64,000 bases of DNA, taken from IMG/VR virus record IMGVR_UViG_3300042691_030495; one strand, written 5' to 3'. The translations under genes and the position numbers were made by a program. Under the pieces are notes generated by a model. It ran no database searches, was not told the DNA's origin, and saw nothing but the letters and a program-made list of their open reading frames with translations. Positions within the stretch are counted from its first letter, which is position 1. Every line of letters begins with the position of its first letter. This document shows, piece after piece, positions 8,390 through 64,000 of the stretch. Origin of the DNA: a virus.

Positions 8390-9250
8390 TTAAGCCTTTA
8401 GGTCTCCAAAGACCAGCCAAGTGTTTGCAGCTACCTTAGTCAGGGATACTGAAGAATTCAACGCCCTAAAGACCAATCCAGGTGTATACAAAAGAGTCAC
8501 AGACGCTCCTTGCACAATAGAAGCTCCTCCAGCTCCCACGCTCTGGTAGAAGTTGAGGGTAGTCCCAATTGGGAAAGTGATTGAGTTAGTAGTGTCTGCA
8601 TCTACTGTAACACTATAAGCTCCGCCAATTGCAGTTAGTGAGTCTCTATATGTTAAGGGCTGAGGTAGTGTTGATGTGGTGGCATTGGCTGTAATGGCAG
8701 CTTTGATCGGAGTAAGCGACGGTACACCCTGCAATGTCTGAGTTCCATCGGAAAACGCAATGCCGCTAGCACCAACGGTTACTGTTCCTGTAAATGTTGG
8801 GGATGCCTTAGGAGCTAGGGTGGTGTCTGTTGGGTGAACGTGATCTGCTCTAGCATACTTTAAAGATGTACCAGCTGCAGCAGTGCCGTCAGCTTCCGGA
8901 GTGGCTGAAGCAGCTTGACCAACAACAAATGCAGTAGTTGCAATCTGTGTGTCGTTTTGGTCAGCGGTTGCTGTTGGTGCTACTGGTGTTCCGGTAAACG
9001 ACGGGCTTGCTAGTGGTGCCTTGTCCTCGAGTTGGTCTTGAATAGAGGAGGTTACGCCAGCTACGTAGCCAATCTCTGTTGACGTGGTAGTGGCAGCTAC
9101 AAGATATCCGTCAACATCTGAAACAATGTCTCGACTTGCAGTGTACTGCGCGCGGTTTGGTGTCCAAACCTCTCCAGACCAAGTCCAAGTTCGGTCATTG
9201 TACGTATACTCATCGCCAACTTCTGGTTCTGCAGGAAAATTAATAGGCAT
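8390..9250 (-). CDS. Tail-fibre-like virion protein
   Basis: MPINFP..P.VGD.Y N-terminus, KAPLASPSFTGTPVAPT and YARADHVHP repeats, C-terminal FPIGT...NTWLVFGDL module. Confidence 0.8.
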   Translation of the reverse strand: MPINFPAEPEVGDEYTYNDRTWTWSGEVWTPNRAQYTASRDIVSDVDGYLVAATTTSTEIGYVAGVTSSIQDQLEDKAPLASPSFTGTPVAPTATADQNDTQIATTAFVVGQAASATPEADGTAAAGTSLKYARADHVHPTDTTLAPKASPTFTGTVTVGASGIAFSDGTQTLQGVPSLTPIKAAITANATTSTLPQPLTYRDSLTAIGGAYSVTVDADTTNSITFPIGTTLNFYQSVGAGGASIVQGASVTLLYTPGLVFRALNSSVSLTKVAANTWLVFGDLKA

Positions 9251-12200
9251 TATGCTTGTGCCTCTGTCCATGCTAGACGACCGCTGAATGACGCAGTTGA
9301 TGACGATAGGTTAGTTACAACGATGGTTAGTGTGTCTGGGCCATCTGGATAAATGCCTGAGTTAGAGGTTGTACCTCCACCACCAAGCACACAGTTGCCA
9401 AGGTCGCGAAGGCGGCTCAGCTCGATTGAGTCAGTACCCTGAGACAAGAAACCACCAGTAATTTCACCACCGGAGACAGTTACGTTACCATTTGTACGAT
9501 AGTCAGCAATTTGAGCCAGAGATGAGTTGGCTGTTCCTGTTTCAGCGAAGTTTGGAGTGGTCCAGGCGACTGAAGCTGAAGGCACTGCGTTCAAGTATGC
9601 ACGCACTAGATAGTTTGTACTCGCTGAGGTTGTGGTCACACCAAGGCTGTTCATCTTAAGCTGCATGCGGTTGATGATTTCACGCTGTCCAAAGTTAGCG
9701 CTAATGCCATTATCTACAGATGGAGCTAAACGGATTGAGAACAGTGCTTTCGATCCATTCGCTGGGATTGAAACGGTTCCAGTCTGACCGTAGGTAAAGA
9801 TGAGAGACGCATCATCGTCGAAACGACCATCCATAATTACCGACGTTCCCCAGTGGGAGATGGACGGTGCAAATGAAGGATACGCCAACTCCACCGAAGT
9901 GGGTGCAGTATCTACGTGGGTGTAGGTCTGAGCAGTCGCACCCATTGGTGCAAAAATCAGTGTTGGGTTAGATGAAGTGATTGCAGTATTTAAAGTGACT
10001 ACAGTACCGGCAATGTTTGTGATAAACGCACCATCTGGGGCTGGGCTAGGAGATGTGCTAGAAAACACGCGCTGTCCAACTTGAAGTCCAGTTGCATCTG
10101 AAACAATTCCTGAGTTAGATCCAGTAGTCCAAGTAGTGGCTACAGCGGTTGCACCAGCACCACCACGAGTTAGACCGGTGAAAGTGGTTGCAGTCTTGCC
10201 AGTGTAGTTTACGTACTCTTGCAATAGTCCAGCCTGGTTATCAGTAGTACTAGGGCGAATAATAAGAGTTCCTGATGAAGGGAACGCAGAGGTGTCAAGC
10301 ACTGTCATGGTTGTGTCAGTGCTTGAGAGACTCTCATCAACACGGGTAGTTGGTGGCAGCGTGGAAGACTCGTAGCGAGCTGGGAGGTTTCCAGAACGCA
10401 TATACGCTTCGTTGTTGACGTTGTTGTTCTTCATCTTGTGAACGTAGAACACGTTGCCGTCTTCACCACGGAGGCCCCAGCGAATAAAGCCAGCACCATA
10501 CCAAGAGTAGTCAATGTAGAACATCTGCATCTTCGTTAAGTCAACGGTGTAGCCAGAAGGTCCAGTACCGTCACACTTGTCTAAGTTGAACTGAGACTGA
10601 GGAATACGAACATCAATAGTCTTTGAAATACTCACGTGAGACGCGCTAGCAGCACGATATGAAGGTGAAATCGTGAAGTTAGGGGTAGCTGATATGTCAT
10701 CAACCGCGATAACTCGGTATGACTGTCCGCGGATTACTACATAGTCGCCTGGGATTAGCTGGCTAGAGTATGCAGTTGGGAATGAAGAACTAGTACGGGT
10801 AACTACGTTAGAGCCTTGAGTTACAGTTGAGCGACCAGAGAGCTGCTGAGTAGATGAGCGCTTTACAACATATAGACCTTGGCCATCAAACTCCCAGAAA
10901 ACACCGTTTTGAGAGTCAAACTGACCTAGTCGGTTAGCTGATCCGTACCAAGAGTTTACGTTTAGGTTTACGATACCAGTAGCTGGTCCAGCAGCAGATG
11001 TCGCCATCTCGTATGTAAATGTGTTAAAGCCAGTAATCTGGGCTACGCTGAATGTTCCGTTGTATGGAGCTTCGTTTGCACCCGCAACTAGGATCGAGGT
11101 TCCTGGCTGAATGTTGTGCTGCTCTTTAGTGGTAACAGTGGCAGTAGTTCCAGACGAGGTAATACCATCGATGGTTGCATATGGCTTAAAGATTGTTCCA
11201 GATGAAATTTGAAGACCCTTACCTGACTGGTAACGGAAGTAACGTCTAGTCTGACGAATTGCAGCTTCGTAGTTTGAGCTTGCGTTAGCAGAGAACAAAA
11301 CACCACCATCAAATGCACGGTGCAAGAACTGAGCCTGCGGACGTACATAAATAGACGCGTTTGTTGCAGTTAAGCCAGAAGGAGTGCCTTCAGTAGGGTC
11401 GGCGTAATAAACAAAAGTGGTTGGGGTGGCTACTGTTGCCACGCGGTATGAGCCGTTTGGTGGATTAGTTCCAGTGATACCAGTCACCGCAATTGTGTTA
11501 CCAATTGATAGCCCGTGAGGAACAGTAGTCGTTACATTCACCTTAAGATCTGAACCTGAAACCGTAACGGTTGGAGTTCCACCAATTTTTGCGTTGGTGT
11601 ATAAGTTAGCAACGTAAATTGCAGTCTTGTTTGGGTCGAGAATGTCTGTAACAGTGGTTTTGTTTTGAGCACGACCTAGGTAGGTAAATGTTCCAGTACC
11701 TCCACCTGACTCGATCAAGAAGTTACCGTTTGCCTCTGAAAGAAAAGTATCCTGTACGTTTACTGCAGTTCCGGTAACAGGGGCAACACCGGCAATAGCC
11801 TGACCTGAAGTCCAAGTCTCTGTTCCTGTTGTTGAATTTACAACTGCAAAAGTTGTGGTGCTTGGGGTTGAGTAGATTAAGTAAGTTCCGTTATAACCAG
11901 AAATTGATGATCCAGAAATAGTCACGTATTGCCCTGTTGAAAAACCGTGAGCCGCAGAAGTTGTGTATTGAACGTAGCCAGAAAATGGGGTGGATGGGTC
12001 AGCGCCAGTTACAGTTGCTGTAGTTGTAGAAAGTGTCACTGTCACAACGCGAGCGTTTGTTGACATGCTTATTCCAGAAACGTTAGGGATTGCAGTTGCT
12101 GAGGGTGCTGCAAAAGGACGGTTGTTGGTTACGGCTAGATTCTCCCACTTAGATTGCTGGGTACCGTACTCAAAGTCGGTATCGATCAGCGCCTGAGCGG

Positions 12201-12638: not shown

Positions 12639-15600
12639 TTAGTAAGCACCCATGATTACCATTATATCGGTATCAGTAGGAAGCGTTGTCCAACCAGCAT
12701 CTCCGTTAGTGTTGGAAAGTTTAACTAAAAATTGTCCGGTAGTTCCTCCGGTAGGTAGAGACTCGCCAGAAGGGCCAGTTGGACCAGCGGGACCTTGCGG
12801 ACCGGCCTCACCGGAAGTTAAAACCCAATAGCCATCGTAGAAGGCGTAAATTCCAGCTTGCTCGCTATTGAACCATAAGTCACCCTGGGTTGCTCCGGTT
12901 GGAGGAGTTGCTGAGACCACAAGGCTTGCACCGCCACCCTCGCCGTTAGAAGCAACGGTGATACGACCCTTTGCGTCCACTGTAATGTTTGCGTTGGTGT
13001 ATGAACCAGCAGTCACACCTGAGGTTGCCAAGGTTGGGTTTGGGTAGGTCCCAGTTAAGTCTCCACCAGCAGGGCCGGTAGGGGTACGAGAGTTAGATAG
13101 TCGAGAGTCTGTAGTAATTACTGCAGTACCCGCAACGTCAGCTGGTTGGATGTTTCCAGAAGTAAGTGCACCACCAGTTACGGCTTTAACTACACCAGCA
13201 GTTAGAGGCATCACAACAGTTCCCGTAAACTCTGGGCTTTGTAGAGGAGCCTTAGCATCCAACTGTGTTTGGATTGCAGAAGTGACTCCATTTACATACG
13301 CAAGCTCGGCGTTAGACACGTCTCCGATTGAGGTAGTTGCTGGAAGTACAACAGTTCCGGTAAAGGTTGGGTCAGCAAGAGTTGCTACTACAGCCGCATC
13401 AATCGAGATCTCTGAACCGTCTTTAACAATTCCAGTTCCAGCAGTAATGTTTTGAGCTGCGCTAAACTGAGTGAAGTTAAGGTCGTCAACACCAAGGTCA
13501 ACTATTCCGCTGTTAGCAACAATAAAACCAGCGTTAGCGTAGAGAGTACCGTTCTGTACTAGACAGAAGTTTCCACCAGCGACTTCAGAGGTAGGGCTGT
13601 TGTCTGAGTCAGTTGCACGGGTTAACTCCCATGGGGCTGAACCTGATCCAAGATCGGTTACGGTGTAGATACCATTCTCTGTAGCGTCAGTCTGAGCTCT
13701 AACTAGAATTCGATCATTTAGAAGAACTGTATATCCGTCAATAGTTCCTAGAGCACCGTTAGATGCTTTAGTGATAGTTGCTCCGAGTCCAGATGTGCCA
13801 TTGTCGTAGGTTCCAGCGAGATTTGCAGTCGTAGCTACATCTACTGGATCCTTAACGCTTAGTCCTGTTGCTAGGTTGTCAACATAAGCCTTTGTTGCAG
13901 CATGTAAGTCCAAACTTGGTGCACCAGAAAGAGTCAAGGCTCCAGTTAAAGTTCCACCGGTTAGTGATAGCTTGCCATCAAGAGCAGTTTGAGTTGCGGT
14001 AGATACAGGCTTGTTAGCGTCTGAAGTGTTGTCTACGTTGCCTAATCCAACCATGCTCTTTGAGATACCGGATACGGTACCAGTAAAGGTTGCGCCAGCA
14101 AGAGATGCTTTTGCGTCCAGCTGAGTCTGAATTGCAGAAGTTACACCATCAACATAGTTTAACTCTTCAGTTGATGCGGTTATGCCGTCAAGAGTGTTTA
14201 GCTCAGCTGCAGATGCGGTTAGGTCACTAACATCTGCAGTCACAACTGTAATGTCGTTGCTTGTAGTGTTAATAGTCTTATTAGTAAGAGTCTGTGTTCC
14301 GCTGTTAGTAGTTACAGCATCGGTAATCTTAACGTTTCCTGAGCCATCAAACTCAACGCCAGTGCCTAGCTTTACAGAAATAGCGGCTGTTGGGTCATCA
14401 TAAGTAAGACCGTTGCCGACGTTTGCTCCAACAGCATCTTGCGCACGTTCGTTAGTGAAGTATAGGTTTGTACCTTCTTCAATGTCAGAAGTAGTAAGCG
14501 CGTTTATTGAAGTGTCTGTGTAGGTGTTAGCAGTGTTAAGCGCAGTGGTGGCTTTAGTCTGAGCACCTGTCTGGGTCTCAAGAGCAGCGGTATCCGCGAT
14601 GCCGTGGATGTTTGTGGTGTCAGCTTCGTGGGCAGCTAGCGCGGAGTTAGATGCTTTTGCATCTAGTGCAGTTTGGGTGGCAGTAGAGACAGGCTTATTG
14701 GCATCTGAGGTGTTGTCAACGTTACCAAGACCCACCATCGCCTTGGTAATACCAGATACGGTTCCGGTGAAGGTAGGGCTGTTTAGCGCTGCCTTCTGGT
14801 TAATCAAAACCTGGGTAGCAGTTGATACTGGCTTGTCTATGTCAGAAGTATTGTCAACGCTGCCAAGACCAACCATAGACTTTGTTACACCAGCTACAGT
14901 TCCAGTAAATGTTGGGCTGTTTATTGGTGCCTTTAGATCTAAAGCATCCTGAGTGTCTGATGATATTGGTTTATCTGCGTCAGAAGTATTGTCAACGCTT
15001 CCAAGACCAACCATAGACTTGGTAATACCAGATACGGTTCCCGTAAATGTTGGACCGTTGATTGGTGCTTTTTCGTCAATGGAGTCTTGTAACAATCCCT
15101 GTACAACACTTAAATCTCCGTCGTAAACTAAAAGACTAGCATCGGTAATACCGTGAACGTTAGTTTCATCTAAATTGTGATTGCTCACGGCTGTGGTTGT
15201 AAAAGTATTTGCAGTTTCTACTGCTTCATCTACTCCTGCATCTACCAAGATCTGTGCTTCGGCAATGGCTGCTGTCTCGGCTGCATCTGCCTTAGTCTGA
15301 GCACCAGTTTGCGTCTCTAAAGCTGAAGTGTCGGTAATGCCGTGAACGTTAGTTGTAGCGTTGTTGTGAGTTGCAATTGCATTGATTGCATTATCGTATG
15401 CAGTTTCTATTCTGTCATCGATTTCATCACTAACTACTAGATAGCCTGGAACTTGAGTTTCTAGTAGTACTCCAGTTCCGTCAAGAGTTGCCACTACAGA
15501 AGTGTCAATACTAAATTCGTTGCCTGTTAGCTCTAGACCGTTCCCTGCTAAGTAAGTGCCAGCACCAGAAAATTGAGTAAATGTAATTGGGTCTGTTCCG

Positions 15601-55683: not shown

Positions 55684-56352
55684 ATGTGCGAGATATGTAC
55701 AACTGAGATGGCGGAGAGCTATGTAGCTCTTCCCAAGTTTAAGATTACCCCTGAGCAAAAGTTGTTGCTAAAGGGCAAACCTCATACTGGCTTAAATTCA
55801 AAACTAACCCCAGAGCAACTAGAAGATCGTCGACTCTATAAGCGAAGCTACGACAAGCTCTATCGAGAGTGGCGCAGGGCTAACGGCGACAATTATCAAA
55901 AAGAATATCAAAAGATATACAAGAGAAACCACGCTTCAGAGATTCACGAATACATAACTGGGTACCGAAAAAAGAACCCTGAATATGCCTTAAAAGCCAG
56001 TAGAAGAAAGCGAGCTAGAAAAGCTCTAGCTCCATCGCATCACTACACTTCAAAAGACATCCTAAGTATTCATGGGACAGCATGCTATCTATGTGGCAGA
56101 GAAATTGATTTATCAGCCCCACGCTCATCAGGAATTCCTGGCTGGCAGGAGGGCCTACATTTAGATCACGTAATCCCGCTGGCAGCAGGTGGCTCCGACA
56201 CTGTTGAGAATGTTAAACCGACTCATGCACTCTGTAATATGAGAAAGAATTCTGCCATTCCGATTGACATTGGAGATACGGAAATAACGGTTAAGGTACT
56301 ATTTGATCAGATATACGGTCAACCTAAAAAGGGTAGGCCATCAATTGAATAG
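55684..56352 (+). CDS. HNH endonuclease
   Basis: RRKRARK...CYLCG...HLDHVIPLAAGGSDTVENV...HALCNMRK. Confidence 0.88.
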   Translation: MCEICTTEMAESYVALPKFKITPEQKLLLKGKPHTGLNSKLTPEQLEDRRLYKRSYDKLYREWRRANGDNYQKEYQKIYKRNHASEIHEYITGYRKKNPEYALKASRRKRARKALAPSHHYTSKDILSIHGTACYLCGREIDLSAPRSSGIPGWQEGLHLDHVIPLAAGGSDTVENVKPTHALCNMRKNSAIPIDIGDTEITVKVLFDQIYGQPKKGRPSIE

Positions 56353-56532
56353 TCATCCGTTGTTTATGCGGGGGAAAAAGGTAGCTCACACTCTCTCCAC
56401 ACGCAAAAATTCGTCCGGAACTAATCACCAAGTTTTAACGAATGTACAATTGTTAGTTAGGGCGGCCAGGATTTCCGTCCTCTCCCCAGTAGATCCTGGT
56501 CGTCCGCTACTCAAACAGTTGGAGCGTTTAAC

Positions 56533-57582
56533 ATGAGCACTCAGGACCTATCCCCTGAATATCAGATAGATGAACCAATCGACCTTAGGGCCGATCTGGC
56601 CTCTCTTGGAATCGAAGAAGTCGATAAAGGCGTCTGTGAAGACAACTATGAAAACCGTGGTATATTACGGCGCGCTAAACTCAACTGGGATCCAGTCTTC
56701 TCAACGAACGGCGTGCCTACAGGACTAATAAGGGCCCGATCAAAAGAGACCACCAAGGAACGCCGCCTCCTATCCCTAGCGGAGAAGCGTCCACTACTTG
56801 TCAACCAATCGGATAACAACTCAGATTTCTTAACCGGCCTGGACCTCTTAGCGGAATCCGCCTCGGATTATTTAGTACCGCCTTGGGTTGTGCATTCTAC
56901 CAGGTTATACTTGAAAGAGCAAGAGGACGGTGGACCAAAATCCGCTAAACGCCAGCCGCTCTGCCAGCCCCACCGTTGCCGCCAGATCAAAGATGACGGT
57001 ATCCGCTGTATGCTCTGGGCATCGGGACGTCCAAAGGATGACGGTCTCTGCCGGATACATTTGCGCAGTGTTAAAAAGTTAACCTCGGATGACATTGAAC
57101 GGGCGCGCACTAAGTTGATGCAAGCCGCCCCGTATGCCGTCGACAAACTTGAGGAGCTTATGGAGTTCGCTGAGAGCGAACCGGTAATGCTCAAAGCCGC
57201 AACCGAGATCCTTGACCGAGCCGGCGTGCGCGGAGGTATAGAGATTGACTCGAACGTTAATATCGACGTCCGGCCTGCAGCGGAAGTAATCAACGAACGT
57301 CTCAACCGGCTTGCCGCAGGAGCCATTCATGCAGCGGCCCGCTTATCTCAGGAAGGTATGGACGTCGTTGACGCTGAGGTTGTAGTTGAGGGTGAAGATA
57401 CCGGATCCAAAACTTTTAACGAATCATTGGACGGCCCGGTAGACGTAACGACCGGATCTGAAGATAACGGATCTATAACGTTTAACGAATCATTAAAAGA
57501 TGACCTGGATCCAACGGAATCCACAGTCCACGGTCCACAGTCCACAGAAGAACGGCCTGCTCTACCTAAGGAAGAGAAATAA
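56533..57582 (+). CDS. Putative terminase small subunit-like protein
   Basis: C...DG.RC...C.IH module followed by AAPYAVDKLEEL...ESEPV.LKAATEILDRAG, a helical pattern seen in TerS-like proteins. Inference only. Confidence 0.45.
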   Translation: MSTQDLSPEYQIDEPIDLRADLASLGIEEVDKGVCEDNYENRGILRRAKLNWDPVFSTNGVPTGLIRARSKETTKERRLLSLAEKRPLLVNQSDNNSDFLTGLDLLAESASDYLVPPWVVHSTRLYLKEQEDGGPKSAKRQPLCQPHRCRQIKDDGIRCMLWASGRPKDDGLCRIHLRSVKKLTSDDIERARTKLMQAAPYAVDKLEELMEFAESEPVMLKAATEILDRAGVRGGIEIDSNVNIDVRPAAEVINERLNRLAAGAIHAAARLSQEGMDVVDAEVVVEGEDTGSKTFNESLDGPVDVTTGSEDNGSITFNESLKDDLDPTESTVHGPQSTEERPALPKEEK

Positions 57583-57920
57583 TGAATAACCTAAACGGTA
57601 ACCCGGATCCAACCTTTGCACGGATCATTGAAGCGGCCCGCACCCATTACGAGAACCTCAAAGCGGACATCCCAAACGCCTCTAACCGGATAGAGTACAT
57701 ACGTCTGACGACCTTAGCTCAGGAAGCATATACTCTTTTAACGAATCTTGAATTGTTCGAGCTCGGTCTCGTCTACGCACGGGTAGCTAATCTAGACGCC
57801 CAGTCAATGGAGCGTTACATGGAAATAATCGCGTCTCGCAAATCTGACGGATCCGAGATCCCGTTGGATCTACCAGAGTTTAAAAGTCCGTTTACACCAC
57901 CACCGTCCACAATGCAGTAG
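57582..57920 (+). CDS. Hypothetical protein
   Basis: TAATG coupling to the upstream gene. Confidence 0.6.
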   Translation: MNNLNGNPDPTFARIIEAARTHYENLKADIPNASNRIEYIRLTTLAQEAYTLLTNLELFELGLVYARVANLDAQSMERYMEIIASRKSDGSEIPLDLPEFKSPFTPPPSTMQ

Positions 57921-57929
57921 ACTTCTCCC

Positions 57930-58802
57930 ATGAGGTTTAAAAAGACGCAAGGACCTGGACCACACGTAGAGCTGTTCATATCCACAGCACAGAAGTACTT
58001 GGGGTATACTTCAGAGATCCTCGGCCGTAATATGTTTGGTCAAAAGGTTGGTTACGACGCCGGCCCATGGAGTGGCGCGTTCATTGATGTTGTTGCCCGG
58101 GAGTCCCTGGTGAACATTCCATCATTCGTTTATTCAGCTGCCGGTCTGGCGGAATGCATTCGTAGTGGCGCGATCTCGCGAGCGCCGCGGCCTGGTGACA
58201 TAGCGATCTTTAACTTTTCATCAATGAGCGGACATGAGCCGGATCCCTTCGGCCCGCCCCATTGCGGGATCGTTACTGACGTCCAAGAATTCACGAAGAG
58301 CGGCCGGTTTGTAACGGTTGAGGGAAACACTGAAGGTGGATCCAAACATTTAACGAAGGACGGCGTGCACCAAAAGATCCGCCACGTAACGGACGTTGTA
58401 ATCTTCTGCAGGCCCGCCTTCACTAACGGGAAGATCCGATCCAGGAAGACTTTTTACGAACGGTTCATGGATCTGTTCGATGCGGCCCGCACTCGTATAA
58501 CGGTTGCTGAACTGGAGGAGATCCGGATAGCGGCGAGCGCGCCTTCAGTATTAAAGTTAAACGGAGAGATCCGCCACGGGGATCGGAACAAACGGATCGA
58601 GACGATCCAGCTAGCGCTCGCAACGGTAACGGACCTCAGGGGCTGTGAACCAGGGAAGTGGGATGCCATCACGGCTGCGGCCTGCTCGCGCTTTCAACGA
58701 AACATTGGACGAACCGGATCTGATGTTACGGGTCTTCCGGATCCGGGTACTTTAAAACGTTTGTCAAAAGTTAGCCGCGTTTTCAAACTTGAATCCGAGT
58801 AG
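57930..58802 (+). CDS. CHAP-like domain + peptidoglycan-binding domain protein
   Basis: PRPGDIAIF, HCGIV, TVEGNT. The usual catalytic Cys (PWC) is Ser (PWSGAF). C-terminal PG-binding-like helices. Confidence 0.75.
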   Translation: MRFKKTQGPGPHVELFISTAQKYLGYTSEILGRNMFGQKVGYDAGPWSGAFIDVVARESLVNIPSFVYSAAGLAECIRSGAISRAPRPGDIAIFNFSSMSGHEPDPFGPPHCGIVTDVQEFTKSGRFVTVEGNTEGGSKHLTKDGVHQKIRHVTDVVIFCRPAFTNGKIRSRKTFYERFMDLFDAARTRITVAELEEIRIAASAPSVLKLNGEIRHGDRNKRIETIQLALATVTDLRGCEPGKWDAITAAACSRFQRNIGRTGSDVTGLPDPGTLKRLSKVSRVFKLESE

Positions 58803-58847
58803 TTCTTGTGCTAGACTTCGATGGTCTATAGAAAGGACGTTAAAAAC

Positions 58848-59189
58848 ATGAACAAAGCAGTAATTGAGTCCTACCTCAGGAACCTCCTTGGCCAGGTTGC
58901 TGGAGCAGTCATGATTGTTACCCAGACATCAGGAATTCTGAATCCAATCGACTTCGGTACCAGTGAGTGGCTCCTCGTGGCCAACGCCTTGTGGGCGTCC
59001 CTCATCCCAGTAATCCTACGTTGGGTCAACAAGGCCGACCCAGCATTCGGCGCGGTTGCAGAAGTTGCAGCCAAGGAAATCACAAAGAAGATCTCTTCAG
59101 CGGCAAGCTCAGCAAAGAAGAAACCTGCTGCTAAGAAGCCAGCAGCAAAGAAGCCAGCAGCAAAGAAGCCGGCAGCAAAAAAGAGATAA
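58848..59189 (+). CDS. Holin-like membrane protein with histone-H1-like (KKPAA)n tail
   Basis: IESYLR...ALWASLIPVILRWVNKADPAFG; KKPAA four times. Confidence 0.65.
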   Translation: MNKAVIESYLRNLLGQVAGAVMIVTQTSGILNPIDFGTSEWLLVANALWASLIPVILRWVNKADPAFGAVAEVAAKEITKKISSAASSAKKKPAAKKPAAKKPAAKKPAAKKR

Positions 59190-59204
59190 CTTTTAACGAA
59201 TCAT

Positions 59205-59250
59205 AAGAAGCCGGCCCGGTTCAATGTAACCTCGGCCGGTTTTCTTTTTT
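59205..59250 (+). terminator. Intrinsic terminator
   Basis: GCCGGCC...GGCCGGT followed by TTTCTTTTTT. Confidence 0.7.
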
Positions 59251-59261
59251 CTAAAATAGAC

Positions 59262-59290
59262 TTGACAAATAAAAAACGGCATGCTAGTGT
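59262..59290 (+). promoter_or_regulatory. SigA-type promoter
   Basis: TTGACA-17 bp-TAGTGT with TG extension. Confidence 0.7.
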
Positions 59291-59319
59291 TTCAAAACAG
59301 CTAACAGAAAGGACTGAAC

Positions 59320-59598
59320 ATGCAGTCAAAATACATCAAGATGTTATCGGATGAGCAGAGAATTTGCAGGGCCTGCGGATATGAACGTTCACCAAATGCC
59401 GGCCCGTCGGATGACTTGCAGTATTTTAAACAAGGACCGTACCACCCGTCATGTCATGAAGAGGTTGAGCAGCTGATCAAAACTTTTAACGAAAGCGGCG
59501 TGCCCCGTGAAAAAGCGATCGAGATATTTAAGCGCCTCGGTATTAATTTAGAACTGCTCAGTGTCAACGGAGTGTCTGCTAAGAACTTGACAAAATAG
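59320..59598 (+). CDS. Hypothetical zinc-binding protein
   Basis: CRAC...HPSC; GAAAGGA SD. Confidence 0.6.
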   Translation: MQSKYIKMLSDEQRICRACGYERSPNAGPSDDLQYFKQGPYHPSCHEEVEQLIKTFNESGVPREKAIEIFKRLGINLELLSVNGVSAKNLTK

Positions 59599-59615
59599 TA
59601 ACGGCTTGCTATAGT
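59587..59615 (+). promoter_or_regulatory. SigA-type promoter
   Basis: TTGACA-17 bp-TATAGT with TG extension. Confidence 0.75.
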
Positions 59616-59622
59616 CAATGCT

Positions 59623-59724
59623 ATGGATGAAAAGTGCGAGCTCTGCGGAGCAACGGGTAAGGGAACATCGGCGTGGGGCGGTTGGTGCCACGACTGCGAC
59701 AATCAAATGTCGGAAGCGGTTTGA
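59623..59724 (+). CDS. 33-aa leaderless zinc-ribbon peptide
   Basis: MDEKCELCGATGKGTSAWGGWCHDCDNQMSEAV; ATG 7 nt after the -10 box. Confidence 0.55.
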   Translation: MDEKCELCGATGKGTSAWGGWCHDCDNQMSEAV

Positions 59725-60080
59725 GTAACGGCGTGCACTGGATTTGTTCGCGCGCCAACAGTTACGGTATCGGCGTGCGCCGTTTGCCACGGAGTACCTG
59801 CACCTGCGGTGAGTACTGGATGTTCTACTGCGAGGACTGCGGAGAGTGCACACATTGCATCGGTGAGTACTACATGGTCGAGGACGAGGTTTGGTATTCC
59901 GCGATCAGCGCACGGAGCAAACCCGACATGCTTTGCGTTGGGTGCCTGGAAACTCGCATCGGTCGACTTTTAACGAAAGATGATTTTAGTGACGCCCCGT
60001 TGAATTCGCTGCCATTCTGGACTAGGTCCGAGAGATTGAAATCTAGATTGAATTCGACCGGGCCTACTTTTCACGAATGA
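59721..60080 (+). CDS. Cys-rich phage protein
   Basis: CEDCG...EYYMV.DEVW...LCVGCLE.RIGR.L...DF; start uncertain. Confidence 0.65.
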   Translation: MSNGVHWICSRANSYGIGVRRLPRSTCTCGEYWMFYCEDCGECTHCIGEYYMVEDEVWYSAISARSKPDMLCVGCLETRIGRLLTKDDFSDAPLNSLPFWTRSERLKSRLNSTGPTFHE

Positions 60081-60194
60081 TCGATTGTGCTCCGCGAGGA
60101 GGGGTTCCAAAACTTTTTAAAAAAATCTTCCCTTTTTCCCTTTTGTTTTTGAAAACTATGGTATAGTTCAAATACCAAATAGAGAGGGGAAGTC

Positions 60195-60350
60195 ATGGAC
60201 TTCTATGGAAACCCAGAAATCAAAAAGGCCTATCAGGCTGGCTTCAATGATGGACTCCAATGTGGCGTAGATAACGCACGAGAGTTCGAATACATAAATG
60301 AAGAGCAGGCAGAAGAACTTCTGACTGAACTAGTGAAAGAGGAAAACTAA
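60195..60350 (+). CDS. Hypothetical 51-aa protein
   Basis: GAGGGG SD; TAATG overlap with the next gene. Confidence 0.55.
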   Translation: MDFYGNPEIKKAYQAGFNDGLQCGVDNAREFEYINEEQAEELLTELVKEEN

Positions 60351-60811
60351 TGGGGCTAGACATGTATCTTGAGGCGAGGAAGTTTGTCTCGTCATACTCT
60401 GACGCCGAGACTTACCAGAACCTGAAAAAGCAAATGGCGCTCGCGGACGGAGACCTGCCGCACAGCAACTTCGGCACGCTCAGTCTTGAGGTTATGTATT
60501 GGCGGAAAGTAAACGCCGTCCATGATTGGTTTGTTCGTGAGGTTCAGAACGGCGAGGATGACTGTAAGACGTATCACGTCAGCAAGGAAAAGCTTGCCGA
60601 ACTCGTGGACATCTGCAAGCGGATTGTCGATAAACAAGACCCGACGGTTGCTGCGGATTTACTCCCATCGGCGAGCGGGTTCTTCTTTGGGTCAACGGAC
60701 TATGATGAGTATTACTACGAAGGCCTGCTTTGGACTATCGAGGGGATTGAACGGATACTGAATAATCCGGCCTATGACGGCATGGACTTCTACTACCAAG
60801 CCAGTTGGTGA
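60350..60811 (+). CDS. Conserved phage protein
   Basis: MGLDMYL...YWRK.NA.HDWFV...LLP..SGFFFGS..YDEYY...YQASW. Confidence 0.75.
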   Translation: MGLDMYLEARKFVSSYSDAETYQNLKKQMALADGDLPHSNFGTLSLEVMYWRKVNAVHDWFVREVQNGEDDCKTYHVSKEKLAELVDICKRIVDKQDPTVAADLLPSASGFFFGSTDYDEYYYEGLLWTIEGIERILNNPAYDGMDFYYQASW

Positions 60812-60994
60812 AACCTGACGGTTGGCTTGCTGGTTCGTGAAAAGTTCACCAGCAGCAGCTGACGGCATGGATCGTAAGTCCTGGTGCAGCGGCTTGCTGT
60901 TTCGTGAAAAGTTCAGCACAGTTGACGGGGATCCAAACTTTTAACCAACGGTGAAGCTATATGTATACCCAAATCACCATGCGGCGAGCGCGGT

Positions 60995-61318
60995 ATGCTA
61001 TGTTTCATGCGTTCATTAGAGTTACACGTAATCGAGACGGCAAGCGACGTTGACGACGCCGTTACCGCTGGTGTACTCCTACCCGAGAGCCTGGTAGAGA
61101 CAGAGTGCTCTGACTGCTCTGAAGGGGTTGGTTACAGCGGACTCGACGAATTCGCGCCGTTCTCAGTGGTGATCGACGAGAATGATAGAGATTGGATTCT
61201 CTGCAGCGAATGCGCATCTCCAGTGGTTGACGGGGGATGGAGACAAGCCACACATATGCCTGAGACGTACTCTAAAGGGAATATCTATGAGCCTGATGAG
61301 GACCTAGACTTCTACTGA
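60995..61318 (+). CDS. Zinc-binding hypothetical protein
   Basis: CSDC...CSEC; probable leaderless start at 61007. Confidence 0.55.
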   Translation: MLCFMRSLELHVIETASDVDDAVTAGVLLPESLVETECSDCSEGVGYSGLDEFAPFSVVIDENDRDWILCSECASPVVDGGWRQATHMPETYSKGNIYEPDEDLDFY

Positions 61319-61403
61319 TCCATTTTGACTTCAGCCCAGGCTGAGCCAAACTTTCCACGATCGTGGGGCAAAAAAGAATTTGAAAAACTTTTAACGAATA
61401 CGC

Positions 61404-61433
61404 TTGCGTTTTGTCAGCCAATCGTGCTATCGT
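61404..61433 (+). promoter_or_regulatory. Probable early promoter
   Basis: TTGCGT-18 bp-TATCGT with TG extension; AACTTTTAACGAA just upstream. Confidence 0.5.
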
Positions 61434-61485
61434 TCTTTTGTTGGCAAAAGCCAACGATAAGGACACAAAACGAAAGGGTATCAAA

Positions 61486-62100
61486 ATGGCAATTACGCCA
61501 GTAATGACAAGTCCAACGATTGTAGGGAAAGCTCTCTACTTGGAACTTGTAAACAATCCAGACGCACCAGAGGGTTCGATTGGTATGTGGCACAAGGACG
61601 CTGTAAAGCAAGTAATCATAATGCCACAACACTTGGACGAAGTTGGTATCGCACAACCAGTTCAGATTTGGGACAGAGTTCTTTCCAAGCACTCTCCAAG
61701 AAGCCAATGGGACGCTAACAGATTTGGCTCTGGCAGATTGGTAAAGAAGTTGGACGAATCCAAACTCGAAGCTGAAACTGGTTATCACATTTCTTACTCA
61801 AGCTACTCGAGTGATGAACTAGCAAGTATGTCGCCAGTTGATAAGCACAACGCAACCATTTACACAATTACTGAAAAGATGAAAAGCTACTTGCTCGACA
61901 ACTATTCCGTGAAAGATGAAAATGGAGAATCTACAATGGTCGCTACCCAGACTTGGGTGGTCAGAGATTCCAAGCCACTTGCTATCGAAATGACTAACGA
62001 GGAACTTGACTTAGCTCGCTCTGGCAAAACACCTCAAGCTGTTATCCGCAGAATCCAAAAGGCAAGATTGTCTGCTGGCTTCCCAGAAAAAATCGTCTAA
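61486..62100 (+). CDS. Hypothetical (early) protein
   Basis: Start set by the GAAAGGG SD and ATCAAAATG. Confidence 0.7.
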   Translation: MAITPVMTSPTIVGKALYLELVNNPDAPEGSIGMWHKDAVKQVIIMPQHLDEVGIAQPVQIWDRVLSKHSPRSQWDANRFGSGRLVKKLDESKLEAETGYHISYSSYSSDELASMSPVDKHNATIYTITEKMKSYLLDNYSVKDENGESTMVATQTWVVRDSKPLAIEMTNEELDLARSGKTPQAVIRRIQKARLSAGFPEKIV

Positions 62101-62127
62101 GACAGAAAACGAAAGGACACAATCAAA

Positions 62128-63180
62128 ATGTATCTACAACGAGAAATCGCAAAAGGCACTTACAATCTCAATGGTGTATCAGACATAGACACACTATTCA
62201 GCGAGATTGTTGGAAACGCTGTATTACACACAACAACCCCAACACTTGATTCACTTGTTGGAGTTGGTGGTCGTGCCACGCTAAGGGCAAAGCCAACTGC
62301 TAAGGGTGCTAAAGTTGTATCTGAAACTACAACCCCAGAAACTCCAACAGATTTGGAAATTGTAATGGAAACGACTGAATCACTTTCGGGAGAGGAATCT
62401 TATTCTCGACCAAATGGTGAGGACTACTACGCTCGCAACTGGGGAGAACACACAGACATAGAAGTTCTACGCAAAGCGAGAAAAGCCAACCAGTTTGTAA
62501 TGCTGTATGGAAGTCCAGGAACAGGAAAGACTGCTTGTGTCGAAGCCGCTTTCCCAGACGAACTTTATACAGTTCTTGGTTCGGGCGATACCGAAGTCGC
62601 TGACTTGGTAGGTGGCTATGTCCAAACTCCGAGTGGTGGATTCGAGTGGGTGGACGGAAGTTTAGTCAAAGCCGCTTCCGAGGGCAAAGTTCTACTGATT
62701 GACGAAATTGGTCTGATTGACCCGAAAGTTCTTTCGGTTGTCTATGGACTAATGGACGGCAGAAAAGAAATCACAATCACACAGAATCCAGAGCGAGGCA
62801 CAGTAAAAGCTAAGGACGGATTTTTTGTAGTTGCGGCTACTAATCCAAATGCGGCAGGGGTGCGATTGAGTGAAGCCTTGCTTTCTCGATTTGTTATCCA
62901 AGCTGAAATGACTACTGACTGGTCGCTCGCTAGAAAACTTGGCGTTCCGAATCCTGCCGTAGTTGCTTCACAGAACTTGTCAAAGAAATTGGAAAGTGGT
63001 GAAACTTCTTGGTCGCCTCAAATGCGAGAGCTACTTGCCTTTAGAGATTTGAGCAAGTCGTTTGGAACTAAGTGGGCGATTGAGAATCTACTTGCTTCCG
63101 CACCAGAGATTGACAGACCAGTTGTCCAAGATGTGTTCACTCGAGTATTCGGACAGTCTATCTTGCCAGCAAAGATTTAG
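62128..63180 (+). CDS. MoxR/CobS-like AAA+ ATPase
   Basis: GSPGTGKT, LLIDEIG, F.VVAATNP, LSEALLSRF. Confidence 0.88.
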   Translation: MYLQREIAKGTYNLNGVSDIDTLFSEIVGNAVLHTTTPTLDSLVGVGGRATLRAKPTAKGAKVVSETTTPETPTDLEIVMETTESLSGEESYSRPNGEDYYARNWGEHTDIEVLRKARKANQFVMLYGSPGTGKTACVEAAFPDELYTVLGSGDTEVADLVGGYVQTPSGGFEWVDGSLVKAASEGKVLLIDEIGLIDPKVLSVVYGLMDGRKEITITQNPERGTVKAKDGFFVVAATNPNAAGVRLSEALLSRFVIQAEMTTDWSLARKLGVPNPAVVASQNLSKKLESGETSWSPQMRELLAFRDLSKSFGTKWAIENLLASAPEIDRPVVQDVFTRVFGQSILPAKI

Positions 63181-63316
63181 AGCTAGTGTCCTTGCTCTAA
63201 ACCGAAAGGGGTGGACGCAAGTGATCGTGGAGATAATTCCTAATCGCTTGCGTTCACTCCCAAAGGGAACTACACTTAGGACATAACTAAAAATGCCAAC
63301 GAAAGGGAAAATCAAA

Positions 63317-64000
63317 ATGGCACATTACGGACACAGTAAGAAGTCAAGACTTCGCACCAGAGATAAGAGTTCCAAACCAGAGTGGCTTCGCACTTGCTCG
63401 GAGATTGGATTGGTTGCTAACAACTGGGCGATTCGCTCTGACCTAGTTGTTTACGCAGGGGACGATTCGGCAGAGGGCAAAGCGATTGCCGCTTACTACT
63501 CGGACATTTCAGAAATCGAAGTGGACATAGCACAAGCGTTCGGGAGTGCGACTACTCCTGAAATGGTTGGCAACTTTACTCAAAGGGCAACACAATTCGA
63601 GTTCCCAAATGCGACAGGCGTGATTTATCACGAAGCACTACACGCTCGCTTTACTGCTTGGGACACGAACTATCTGGCAAGTCTGCTCGACCCAAATGAG
63701 CAAAAAGCATTTATGTTGCTCGAGGAATCTCGAATCGAAAAGCGTGGAGTAATTGAGCGACCAGAGAATCGTTTATTCTTACGCTCGTCTGCTTTACACT
63801 TGGCACTCGAGGACGCTGACCCTGAAACACTTTCCGCTATGGGAGATGTTTGGCAGGGTGCGTTTGTGTCTGCCCTATCGCTCGCTCGTTATGACGCAGG
63901 AGTTTTGGACGCTGATGATGTGGCAGAGCTTTACACTTCACTCACTTCGATTCTTGGTATGGAACTTTACAGAGAGCTACGAAAGATTTGGGTGGAGTTC
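63317..64000 (+). CDS. CobT-like/VWA partner protein, N-terminal HEXXH domain; truncated by the window
   Basis: Not in the ORF track. MAHYGHSKK...GVIYHEALHARFT...LLEESRIE; follows the MoxR ATPase. Confidence 0.75.
   Translation, partial: MAHYGHSKKSRLRTRDKSSKPEWLRTCSEIGLVANNWAIRSDLVVYAGDDSAEGKAIAAYYSDISEIEVDIAQAFGSATTPEMVGNFTQRATQFEFPNATGVIYHEALHARFTAWDTNYLASLLDPNEQKAFMLLEESRIEKRGVIERPENRLFLRSSALHLALEDADPETLSAMGDVWQGAFVSALSLARYDAGVLDADDVAELYTSLTSILGMELYRELRKIWVEF

Follow-up and report, generated by a model that had tools for sequence, protein, structure and literature searches.

Why should a phage genome lose nearly every short palindrome from one position onward, and what might the place of that change say about how its DNA enters the host? 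The question is raised by the last 2.6 kb of the window analysed here, a stretch of 64,000 nucleotides from an uncultured virus. The first-pass annotation had read the change as the physical end of the genome, entering the cell first. Here, we describe the depletion and its borders, compare it with the same locus in related phages and weigh the explanations that it allows.

Palindrome loss to the right of position 61392

From 61392 to the end of the window, 12 of the 16 palindromic tetranucleotides are avoided, with a single GATC (63223) and a single TATA (62566) as exceptions. More specifically, ACGT, ATAT, CATG, CCGG, CGCG, GCGC, GGCC, GTAC, TGCA and TTAA each have a count of zero in 61400-64000, and the words kept are AATT (8), AGCT (12), CTAG (4) and TCGA (18). 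Recounting thus bore out the nine missing palindromes, the lone GATC and the four persisting words that had been listed beforehand, and the depletion is even stronger than described at the time, with ATAT and TATA likewise missing (TATA 1). The final avoided word left of the zone is a TTAA at 61391; the switch, which had been called abrupt and placed near 61400, is therefore sharp to a few bases. In the rest of the window the 12 avoided words occur at 30-75 per kb throughout, including 54-75 per kb in 57-60 kb. Counting palindromes along the window excludes an absence of depletion and shows that the depletion is regional.

The avoided words are rarer than composition and codon usage predict. 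Only 22 tetranucleotides occur at most once in the zone and 12 of these are palindromes, compared with 16 palindromes among all 256 words. Shuffling synonymous codons (n = 1000, each protein and the per-gene codon usage preserved) gave an expectation of 93.7 ± 8.5 avoided words in the three purged genes, with a minimum of 67; one is seen, which rules out codon bias. The depletion extends to the spacers, whose 407 non-coding bases contain one avoided word, and to 5- and 6-bp palindromes. Observed and expected counts of interrupted palindromes are 0 and 23 for TTNAA, 0 and 11 for GGNCC, 1 and 12 for GTNAC, and 2 and 9 for CCNGG. Palindromic 6-mers built on the retained cores are nearly all depleted as well (1 against ~17 expected, six CTCGAG excepted).

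Seven contigs span the switch at 99.92-100% identity, and the exact ATPase protein of the zone is on record in 38 blocks from independent assemblies. The mis-assembly of a foreign contig, a concern raised in the first-pass annotation, is ruled out by these two observations. A megablast search of the window against phage records gave no match, and an exact 40-mer taken at the end of the window had no match in IMG/VR.

Gene content, extent and conservation of the purged zone

Table 1. Features at the palindrome switch and purged zones in related genomes.
Feature	Position	Strand	Basis or remark
Predicted left boundary of terminal repeat	56353..56532	.	synteny only
Unpurged, palindrome-rich leader with motif array	56533..61391	+	word density, homologues
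Final copy of the 13-nt motif AACTTTTAACGAA, exactly on the switch	61386..61398	+	motif scan
Inner (left) 2.6 kb of the palindrome-purged zone	61392..64000	.	word counts
Host-type promoter-like site ahead of first purged gene: TG, TTGCGT, 18 nt, TATCGT	61404..61433	+	sequence inspection
Purged gene 1, 204 aa, no family match	61486..62100	+	profile scans
AAA+ ATPase, AAA_5, CobS/MoxR-like, 350 aa	62128..63180	+	PF07728, E 6e-21
Second promoter-like site: TTGCGT, 17 nt, TACACT	63248..63276	+	sequence inspection
CobT-like protein with VWA domain, putative, 614 aa, N-terminal part in window	63317..64000	+	ends at 65161, outside the window
Purged zone, this genome	61.39 to ~76.4 kb		islands inside
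Purged zone, G001	8.86-22.3 kb of 153.7 kb
Purged zone, G002	46.2-63.9 kb of 136.3 kb
Purged zone, G004	2.6-34.3 kb

The 204-aa protein has weak homologues at the matching position in relatives and is followed by a putative CobS/CobT-like pair. The AAA_5 match of the first member is clear, and this ATPase is 74% identical to the protein annotated 'AAA family ATPase' in Actinomycetia phage DSL-LC01. The second member matches VWA_CoxE at 25.4 bits, slightly below the cut-off of 26.4 bits, and is 42% identical to the 'cobalamin biosynthesis protein' of the same phage. The site at 61404 may serve as a promoter, judging from its sequence; its CGCTTGCGTT box is repeated at 63245 and has no other copy in 73 kb. 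The lone GATC lies just upstream of the second promoter-like site.

The leader to the left of the switch encodes a 349-aa protein, a 112-aa protein, an endolysin (57930-58802) and small genes, and homologues of leader genes are the opening genes of the terminal repeat of the Microbacterium phage A3Wally. A TerS-like gene considered at 57.3-58.8 kb was dropped, as the gene at 57930-58802 matches endolysins. Fifteen copies of the motif lie in 56430-61398 (at most two mismatches), 12 of them on the plus strand, and the whole window holds 19 copies against 2.9 expected. The segment immediately ahead of the leader contains the first copy (56430) and a conserved hairpin (56461-56505), and is preceded by an HNH endonuclease gene at 55684-56352.

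Metagenome contigs that extend the window (coordinates of this genome) show that the clean stretch runs contiguously to 65311 and continues as a mosaic to ~76385. Between 61392 and 65311 there are 2 avoided words, compared with ~150 expected from the rate in the window itself. The zone is therefore finite, ~15 kb in total and interspersed with unpurged islands, and does not open a genome arm of different composition. In the S8 peptidase gene of one island, the only words kept are CGCG, GCGC and CATG, two TATA aside, and such islands with different avoided sets point to gene flux between zones. Furthermore, a repeat array at the predicted right tip contains ~33 GATC sites. The cleanest part of the zone adjoins the switch, and every zone gene reads away from it; a smooth fall in purge strength from one border was considered and dropped, the gradient being absent.

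A generic promoter scan showed no enrichment relative to shuffled sequence (28 against 22.6 and 25 against 23.1), and terminator-like sites showed a modest one (35 against 19.9 and 28 against 15.8). Searching the zone proteins with Pfam and PHROGs returned only AAA_5, the borderline VWA match and DUF3846. Neither an anti-restriction family nor a restriction-type nuclease turned up in the scanned zone proteins.

Of 56 related phages, about half carry one purged zone, located at the same position in the genome. In 29 of the 56 distinct cassettes, 8 or more of the 16 words occur at most once, whereas upstream control windows reach 7 at most. Each whole genome examined has a single zone, starting 0.5-1.5 kb upstream of the ATPase gene, and throughout the family the cassette is conserved in synteny and shared by vertical descent (ATPase identity 57-76%). 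Across lineages there are 23 distinct sets of kept words, with CTAG kept nearly always, which fits what is expected from differing restriction-modification (R-M) repertoires of the hosts. It is plausible that the missing words list the R-M specificities of the host, as first proposed.

The homologous cassette of DSL-LC01 has the same gene order and no purge. The purge is likewise absent from the terminal repeats of A3Wally and a second Microbacterium phage, Pumpernickel, and from the left arm of Gordonia phage Sixama, and the first-step-transfer DNA of T5 has no general palindrome purge. With A3Wally, Pumpernickel, Sixama and T5 all unpurged, these comparisons yield no cultured example.

A predicted terminal repeat and the explanations of the purge

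A3Wally and Pumpernickel have exact terminal repeats of 15,503 and 19,963 bp that cover the syntenic region. Their TerL proteins are 60-63% identical to that of the phage studied here, and the order of 349-aa protein, endolysin, small genes, HTH protein and TerL is common to the group. Homologues in the A3Wally repeat match the 349-aa protein at E 8e-45 and the HTH protein at E 5e-51, and the endolysin is represented there as well. Both cultured repeats open with homologues of the 349-aa gene and the endolysin gene, start ~62 bp before the homologue of the 56533 gene and terminate inside a short conserved element. From this synteny we infer a corresponding repeat in the present genome. Its left end is predicted at ~56.47 kb, before the 56533 gene and ~5 kb upstream of the switch, and its right end at the element near ~76.39 kb, ~12.4 kb past the end of the window. 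The idea of a terminal location is supported in that the syntenic region of two cultured relatives belongs to a long direct terminal repeat, but synteny puts the ends elsewhere.

The end element, of the form GAAAC...GCCAAA, has a single-copy, same-strand counterpart in this genome (76353-76407) and in G001, G002, G004 and G005, and a profile made from it picks up G003 (E 5e-18) and G007 (E 7e-11). Its likeness to the cultured repeat ends is short, with an nhmmer E of 4 for A3Wally and a match to Pumpernickel by pattern only, nhmmer giving none. Ordinary palindromes are back within ~15 bp past the element in this genome, G001, G002 and G004. A strict association of the element with the zone border was dropped, being true in only 4 of 7 whole or partial genomes; in G003, G005 and G007 the strongly purged zone stops ~15 kb short of the element, and TerL lies in the intervening stretch. 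Six genomes have the element directly ahead of the gene for the 169-aa homologue, and it could therefore be the control region of that gene.

The longer the collapsed genome, the shorter the predicted repeat (r = -0.81, permutation p ~0.001, n = 8), and the two lengths sum to 162.7 ± 4.4 kb. This size compensation suggests that the interval behaves like a terminal redundancy. The phage has a genome of ~142 kb, would measure ~162 kb as packaged and probably infects freshwater actinobacteria. In the relatives, contigs tend to end either 0.2-2 kb ahead of the 349-aa gene or within the endolysin gene, and with the clusters in these places their use as a mark of the switch was abandoned.

The best reading of the locus, which we regard as moderately probable on the sequences compared, is a T5-like, restriction-proof early block that enters first and lies within the long terminal repeat. 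The end packaged last would enter first, namely the right end, predicted at the conserved cut-site element, by analogy with the first-step transfer of T5. The window would then contain the innermost 2.6 kb of a ~15-kb early block, made up of small genes and opening with the 204-aa protein and the AAA+/VWA pair. These ~15 kb would be exposed to host restriction enzymes during expression from host-type promoters, and the remaining genome would be protected by then or enter only later. In a block open to restriction any Type II site would be costly, so that selection would have rewritten synonymous sites and spacers until almost no 4-6 bp palindrome remained; sites outside the block would be neutral. 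The block is probably purged because it must outlast the host enzymes until the phage disarms them. Position 61392 probably marks where the exposed segment ends on its inner side, a location comparable to that of the injection stop in T5, and the 15 motif copies that start there would form a candidate pause or stop region.

Several observations count against a first-entering block of this kind: the unpurged islands and the GATC sites at the predicted tip, the three zones that end early, the short resemblance between the end element and the cultured ends together with the element's possible role in gene control, and the lack of a purge in A3Wally, Pumpernickel, Sixama, T5 first-step-transfer DNA and DSL-LC01. 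A fuller scenario for the freshwater actinophages of 126-154 kb (as assembled) strikes us as unlikely. It combines T5-like two-step delivery by the right end of an 18-37 kb repeat, a stop at the 61398 array, a 204-aa/AAA+/VWA cassette that frees the stop or shields the remainder, and missing words that catalogue the host enzymes.

An unlikely alternative does without staged entry, and only the early transcription units would need to stay intact in the first minutes. Breaks elsewhere would be repaired or prevented as soon as early proteins are present, or a co-injected protein coat would be stripped only where host polymerase transcribes. Sites would then be selected against only in DNA transcribed early. 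The zone borders do coincide with transcription-unit borders (the promoter-like site at 61404 on the left, terminators and the start of the next block on the right), and the zones of G003, G005 and G007 lie within the predicted repeat and reach neither of its ends. However, an unrepaired double-strand cut is equally lethal anywhere, and no regional effect of this kind is documented without staged entry. Moreover, the purge in four genomes ends within ~15 bp of the element in which cultured relatives have a physical end. The unpurged islands are equally hard to explain with and without staged entry.

The first-pass proposal itself placed the physical end at ~61.4 kb, with the purged side as the entering tip and the side with the motifs and GATC sites packaged first and entering last. 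What stands of it is a purge that is real, regional and of the kind expected from restriction enzymes; the end at 61.4 kb we now consider decidedly unlikely. A switch abrupt to a few bases with a motif copy exactly on it would suit such an end, as would the position of the cleanest part of the zone and a direction of reading reminiscent of transcription-assisted entry. Yet the left repeat end of two cultured relatives lies ~5 kb further left, upstream of the 56533 homologue, and it is the opposite zone border, not 61392, that matches the element holding the cultured repeat end. The contig ends of relatives also cluster elsewhere.

Self-immunity appears very improbable. Here the phage's own palindrome-cutting nuclease or nucleases would degrade host DNA early, and the first-entering block would have to lack their words. 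The escape of T5 DNA while the phage breaks down host DNA in first-step transfer has been described as unclear (PMC10644984); lineage-specific word sets could follow phage-encoded nucleases, and an HNH endonuclease gene lies at 55684-56352. Twelve 4-mers and many 5- and 6-mers would nevertheless call for many nucleases or one unusually general enzyme, the zone proteins scanned include no restriction-type nuclease, and staged entry would still be required. A foreign or artefactual segment (recent transfer from a donor that avoids palindromes genome-wide, an effect of codon bias or a chimeric assembly), to which the abrupt shift and the islands with another avoided set might point, is largely refuted and hardly credible given a vertically shared, syntenic cassette, a junction spanned by independent assemblies and one zone at the same place in every whole genome examined.

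If the reading as a first-entering early block is true, a regional palindrome purge would mark first-exposed DNA in uncultured phages from sequence, with no infection needed. Because related lineages avoid different word sets, a zone may be an indirect record of the Type II restriction enzymes present in its host population in lakes. The tie between this uncultured family and cultured Microbacterium phages with mapped terminal repeats opens an experimental route.

Comparison with known systems

Restriction of T5-like phages works only through sites in the part of the terminal repeat that enters in first-step transfer (PMC10644984). The phage studied here would resemble T5 and BF23 (Tequintavirus) in the long direct terminal repeat that is predicted for it (T5 has one of 10.2 kb, the cultured relatives have repeats of 15.5-20 kb) and in the small early genes with host-type promoters, here also predicted, that the repeat contains. 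The inner end is repeat-rich in both, with the T5 injection stop signal at 9140-10149 and the motif array running leftwards from 61398, and an avoidance of sites in exposed DNA is seen here (1 against 94 expected, a single zone per genome). The purge is far more extreme than in T5 itself, however, with 12 of 16 tetranucleotide palindromes purged. In addition, the predicted entering end is the right one, and the unpurged inner part of the repeat spans 5 kb and is coding. Two-step entry, a property of T5, is a proposal for the present phage.

Bacillus phage SPO1, which is unrelated to the phage studied here, carries a host-takeover module in a 13-kb terminal redundancy. The two are alike in that many small early genes, in SPO1 each with its own promoter and terminator, lie inside a long terminal redundancy; we know of no report of palindrome purging in the SPO1 module.

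In T7-like phages (Murciavirus), restriction acts via motifs in the leading, first-injected region (PMC12455610). There too the location of sites matters besides their number, a motif-free leading region escaping despite motifs elsewhere, and predictions of R-M escape should take both into account. Murciavirus differs in being a podovirus with a short repeat, studied experimentally for a single Type I motif, whereas the present phage is siphovirus-like, ~142 kb, with a wholesale loss of Type II-type palindromes documented purely in silico.

Finally, the genome-wide under-representation of short palindromes in phages has been attributed to R-M pressure (Rusinov et al. 2018, PMC6286503), and here as well short palindromes fall below expectation. 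Unlike that general avoidance, the purge described here occupies ~10% of the genome between sharp borders, the remainder having ordinary or raised palindrome density, and it affects many words at once, in a set that shifts between close lineages.

Loss of palindromic words to the right of position 61392

Between 61400 and 64000, ACGT, ATAT, CATG, CCGG, CGCG, GCGC, GGCC, GTAC, TGCA and TTAA are absent, GATC (63223) and TATA (62566) each occur once, and AATT, AGCT, CTAG and TCGA retain their usual frequency. The first-pass annotation had listed nine of these missing 4-mers, the lone GATC and the four persisting words; the counts confirm it and add ATAT and TATA. The last avoided word before the switch is a TTAA at 61391, and elsewhere in the window the 12 avoided words reach 30-75 per kb. 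Palindromes account for 12 of the 22 tetranucleotides with at most one match in the purged stretch.

Synonymous codons were shuffled 1000 times within the three genes of the stretch, preserving proteins and codon usage. The genes contain 1 avoided word against 93.7 ± 8.5 expected (lowest shuffle, 67), and the 407 spacer bases of the purged stretch also contain 1. The interrupted palindromes TTNAA, GGNCC, GTNAC and CCNGG are depleted as well, as are nearly all 6-bp palindromes with the four retained cores, CTCGAG (n=6) being the exception. Because of these shuffle, spacer and longer-palindrome results, we attribute the loss to a general palindrome purge, carried by codon choice and spacers, and not to a composition effect. 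Furthermore, within 61392-65311 the strand-specific trinucleotides ATA, CAT, TAG and CCT are 3-4 fold low, the His codon CAC is used 15 times and CAT once, and the Pro codon CCC is never used; constraints beyond palindromes may act there.

An assembly artefact, which had been named as a possible refutation of the earlier claim, is ruled out by seven contigs that span the switch and match the window at 99.92-100% identity and by the exact ATPase protein, recorded in 38 blocks from independent assemblies. Contig walking extended the phage's own sequence downstream to 82.9 kb in total. The clean stretch is contiguous to 65311, past which the zone is a mosaic of ordinary-density islands and purged genes, with gene content varying among strains. 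No purge was found within 1-61 kb of the window. An S8 peptidase gene in the zone (L124:12163-13095 of the downstream sequence; 74723-75655) keeps only CGCG, GCGC, CATG and two TATA, an avoided set unlike that of its neighbours. Its homologues sit elsewhere in the related genomes G001 and G002, and it looks imported.

Left of the switch, an oriented array of AACTTTTAACGAA copies at 56430-61398 was confirmed by motif search. A TerS-like gene considered at 57.3-58.8 kb was rejected, the gene at 57930-58802 being an endolysin. The lysis module (57000-60000) is GC-richer and carries 54-75 avoided words per kb, above the window norm, with 42 GATC in 5 kb; relatives show the same enrichment at this position. 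A 58-bp insertion/deletion at 60132-60191 distinguishes the window from an otherwise identical 142-kb JGI contig.

Coordinates of purged features in the window's phage and related genomes, and of the end element
Feature	Position	Remarks
Clean stretch	61392-65311	Promoter-like site, 204-aa protein, AAA_5 ATPase, 614-aa CobT-like VWA protein, terminator
Gene without avoided words	67022-67540	Own genome
Gene without avoided words	71372-71611	Own genome
DUF3846 gene without avoided words	71976-72341	Own genome
Gene without avoided words	72561-72857	Own genome
End element	76353-76407	Own genome, 12.4 kb beyond window end; alignment with cultured repeat ends
G001 purged zone	8.86-22.3 kb of 153.7 kb	Both borders sharp
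G002 purged zone	46.2-63.9 kb of 136.3 kb	Both borders sharp
G004 purged zone	2.6 to 34.3 kb	Mosaic
G003		Avoided words low genome-wide, plus one deeper zone

The purge among related phages

ATPases 57-76% identical to that of the window are encoded at 80 IMG/VR loci, many of which have an abrupt switch 0.5-1.5 kb before the ATPase gene, with the purge extending for at least 10 kb. In 29 of 56 distinct cassettes, at least 8 of the 16 palindromic words occur at no more than one match per 2.9 kb, a level never reached by more than 7 of 16 in upstream control windows. These 29 cassettes show 23 different kept-sets: 28 cassettes retain CTAG, 1 retains ACGT and none retains ATAT. The whole genomes examined have one purged zone each. 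The purge is absent from some relatives with the same gene order, such as the Actinomycetia phage DSL-LC01, and from T5 and the cultured relatives checked (A3Wally, Pumpernickel, Sixama). That the location is conserved while the word sets vary suggests a changing, sequence-specific selective agent, with restriction enzymes as the obvious candidate.

Predicted boundaries of a terminal repeat

A3Wally, Pumpernickel and other cultured Microbacterium phages have large terminases 60-63% identical to that of our phage. According to their records, A3Wally and Pumpernickel have exact direct terminal repeats of 15,503 and 19,963 bp. Both start ~62 bp upstream of a homologue of the 349-aa gene at 56533 and continue with an endolysin homologue and many small plus-strand genes. 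Synteny places the left boundary of a predicted repeat in our phage at about 56.47 kb, which is 5 kb to the left of the switch. The physical end proposed earlier near 61.4 kb is thus unlikely, also given the position of the end element (Table).

Just upstream of the 349-aa gene, where the repeat is predicted to start, lies a hairpin (56461-56505; loop CCTCTCCCC) that may represent a conserved leader structure in RNA or DNA: G001 and G002 retain its loop but differ in its stem. An HNH endonuclease gene (55684-56352) directly precedes this boundary; the relatives examined yielded no homologue at that position. Nearby is a hot spot of assembly breaks: among IMG/VR relatives (L012-L091), contig ends are ~4x commoner upstream than downstream of the ATPase, with clusters either inside the endolysin gene or 0.2-2 kb ahead of the 349-aa gene.

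The two cultured repeats terminate within a short element whose GAAAC and GCCAAA blocks are invariant. It can be aligned to an element present once, and on the same strand, in our phage, G001, G002, G004 and G005. A profile of the freshwater copies recovers G003 (E 5e-18), G007 (E 7e-11) and G006 (E 0.002), and the A3Wally repeat end at E = 4 only, which makes the connection with the cultured phages suggestive but unproven. In our phage, G001, G002 and G004, ordinary palindromes return within ~15 bp past the element; in G003, G005 and G007 the deep zone stops ~15 kb before it, with TerL between. The element lies directly upstream of the same 169-aa gene in six genomes and could be its control region. 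Across eight genomes, the distance between the 349-aa gene and the element falls as collapsed genome length rises (r = -0.81, permutation p ~0.001), and the two add up to 162.7 ± 4.4 kb, which fits an interval packaged twice into a fixed-capacity capsid.

Adjoining the predicted right terminus, a non-coding array (L124:13160-13660; 75.72-76.22 kb) holds ~33 GATC in AGATCT/GGATCAGATCT-type repeats and a few CCGG, the other avoided words being absent; G002 has CTAGG-type repeats at the matching place. The word CAAACGA lies ~15 nt past the cut at both A3Wally repeat junctions (L126:1-30, 15504-15530) and the Pumpernickel right junction (L129:19964-19990). It resembles TAACGAA, with which the array motif of the window ends, and this may hint at a terminase recognition word.

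Proposed entry of the purged block and comparison with T5 and T7

Because the genes for terminase, portal and head are found on the right-hand side of the cut element, and because in tailed phages studied for this the DNA end packaged last exits first, the right-end repeat copy would be packaged last and enter first. The purged DNA would occupy three quarters of the predicted ~20 kb repeat, on its right-hand side and flush with the predicted right terminus, and staged, right-end-first entry of this block is our interpretation. Difficulties for it are the unpurged islands within the phage's own zone, the GATC array at the predicted tip, the three lineages not purged up to the element, the element's possible control role, and the unpurged cultured relatives and T5. 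An alternative with no staged entry, in which only early transcription units would need to stay intact, retains appreciable weight. The earlier claim of restriction-proof, first-entering DNA is partly supported: it gains from a purge that is regional and recurs in many relatives, with word sets differing by lineage, and loses its end at 61.4 kb; that the block is restriction-proof, first-exposed DNA is likely.

R-M systems can attack T5-like phages only at sites in the first-step-transfer portion of their terminal repeat (PMC10644984), and they target T7-like phages by way of leading-region motifs (PMC12455610). With staged entry, the purge would likewise be limited to the block exposed to restriction, and the switch would mark the inner limit of exposure. 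T5 has an injection stop signal, and here the oriented array occupies a comparable position; T5 itself, in contrast to our phage, has no palindrome purge. We regard the purged block of this uncultured actinophage family as a new and extreme form of the leading-region principle known from T5 and T7.
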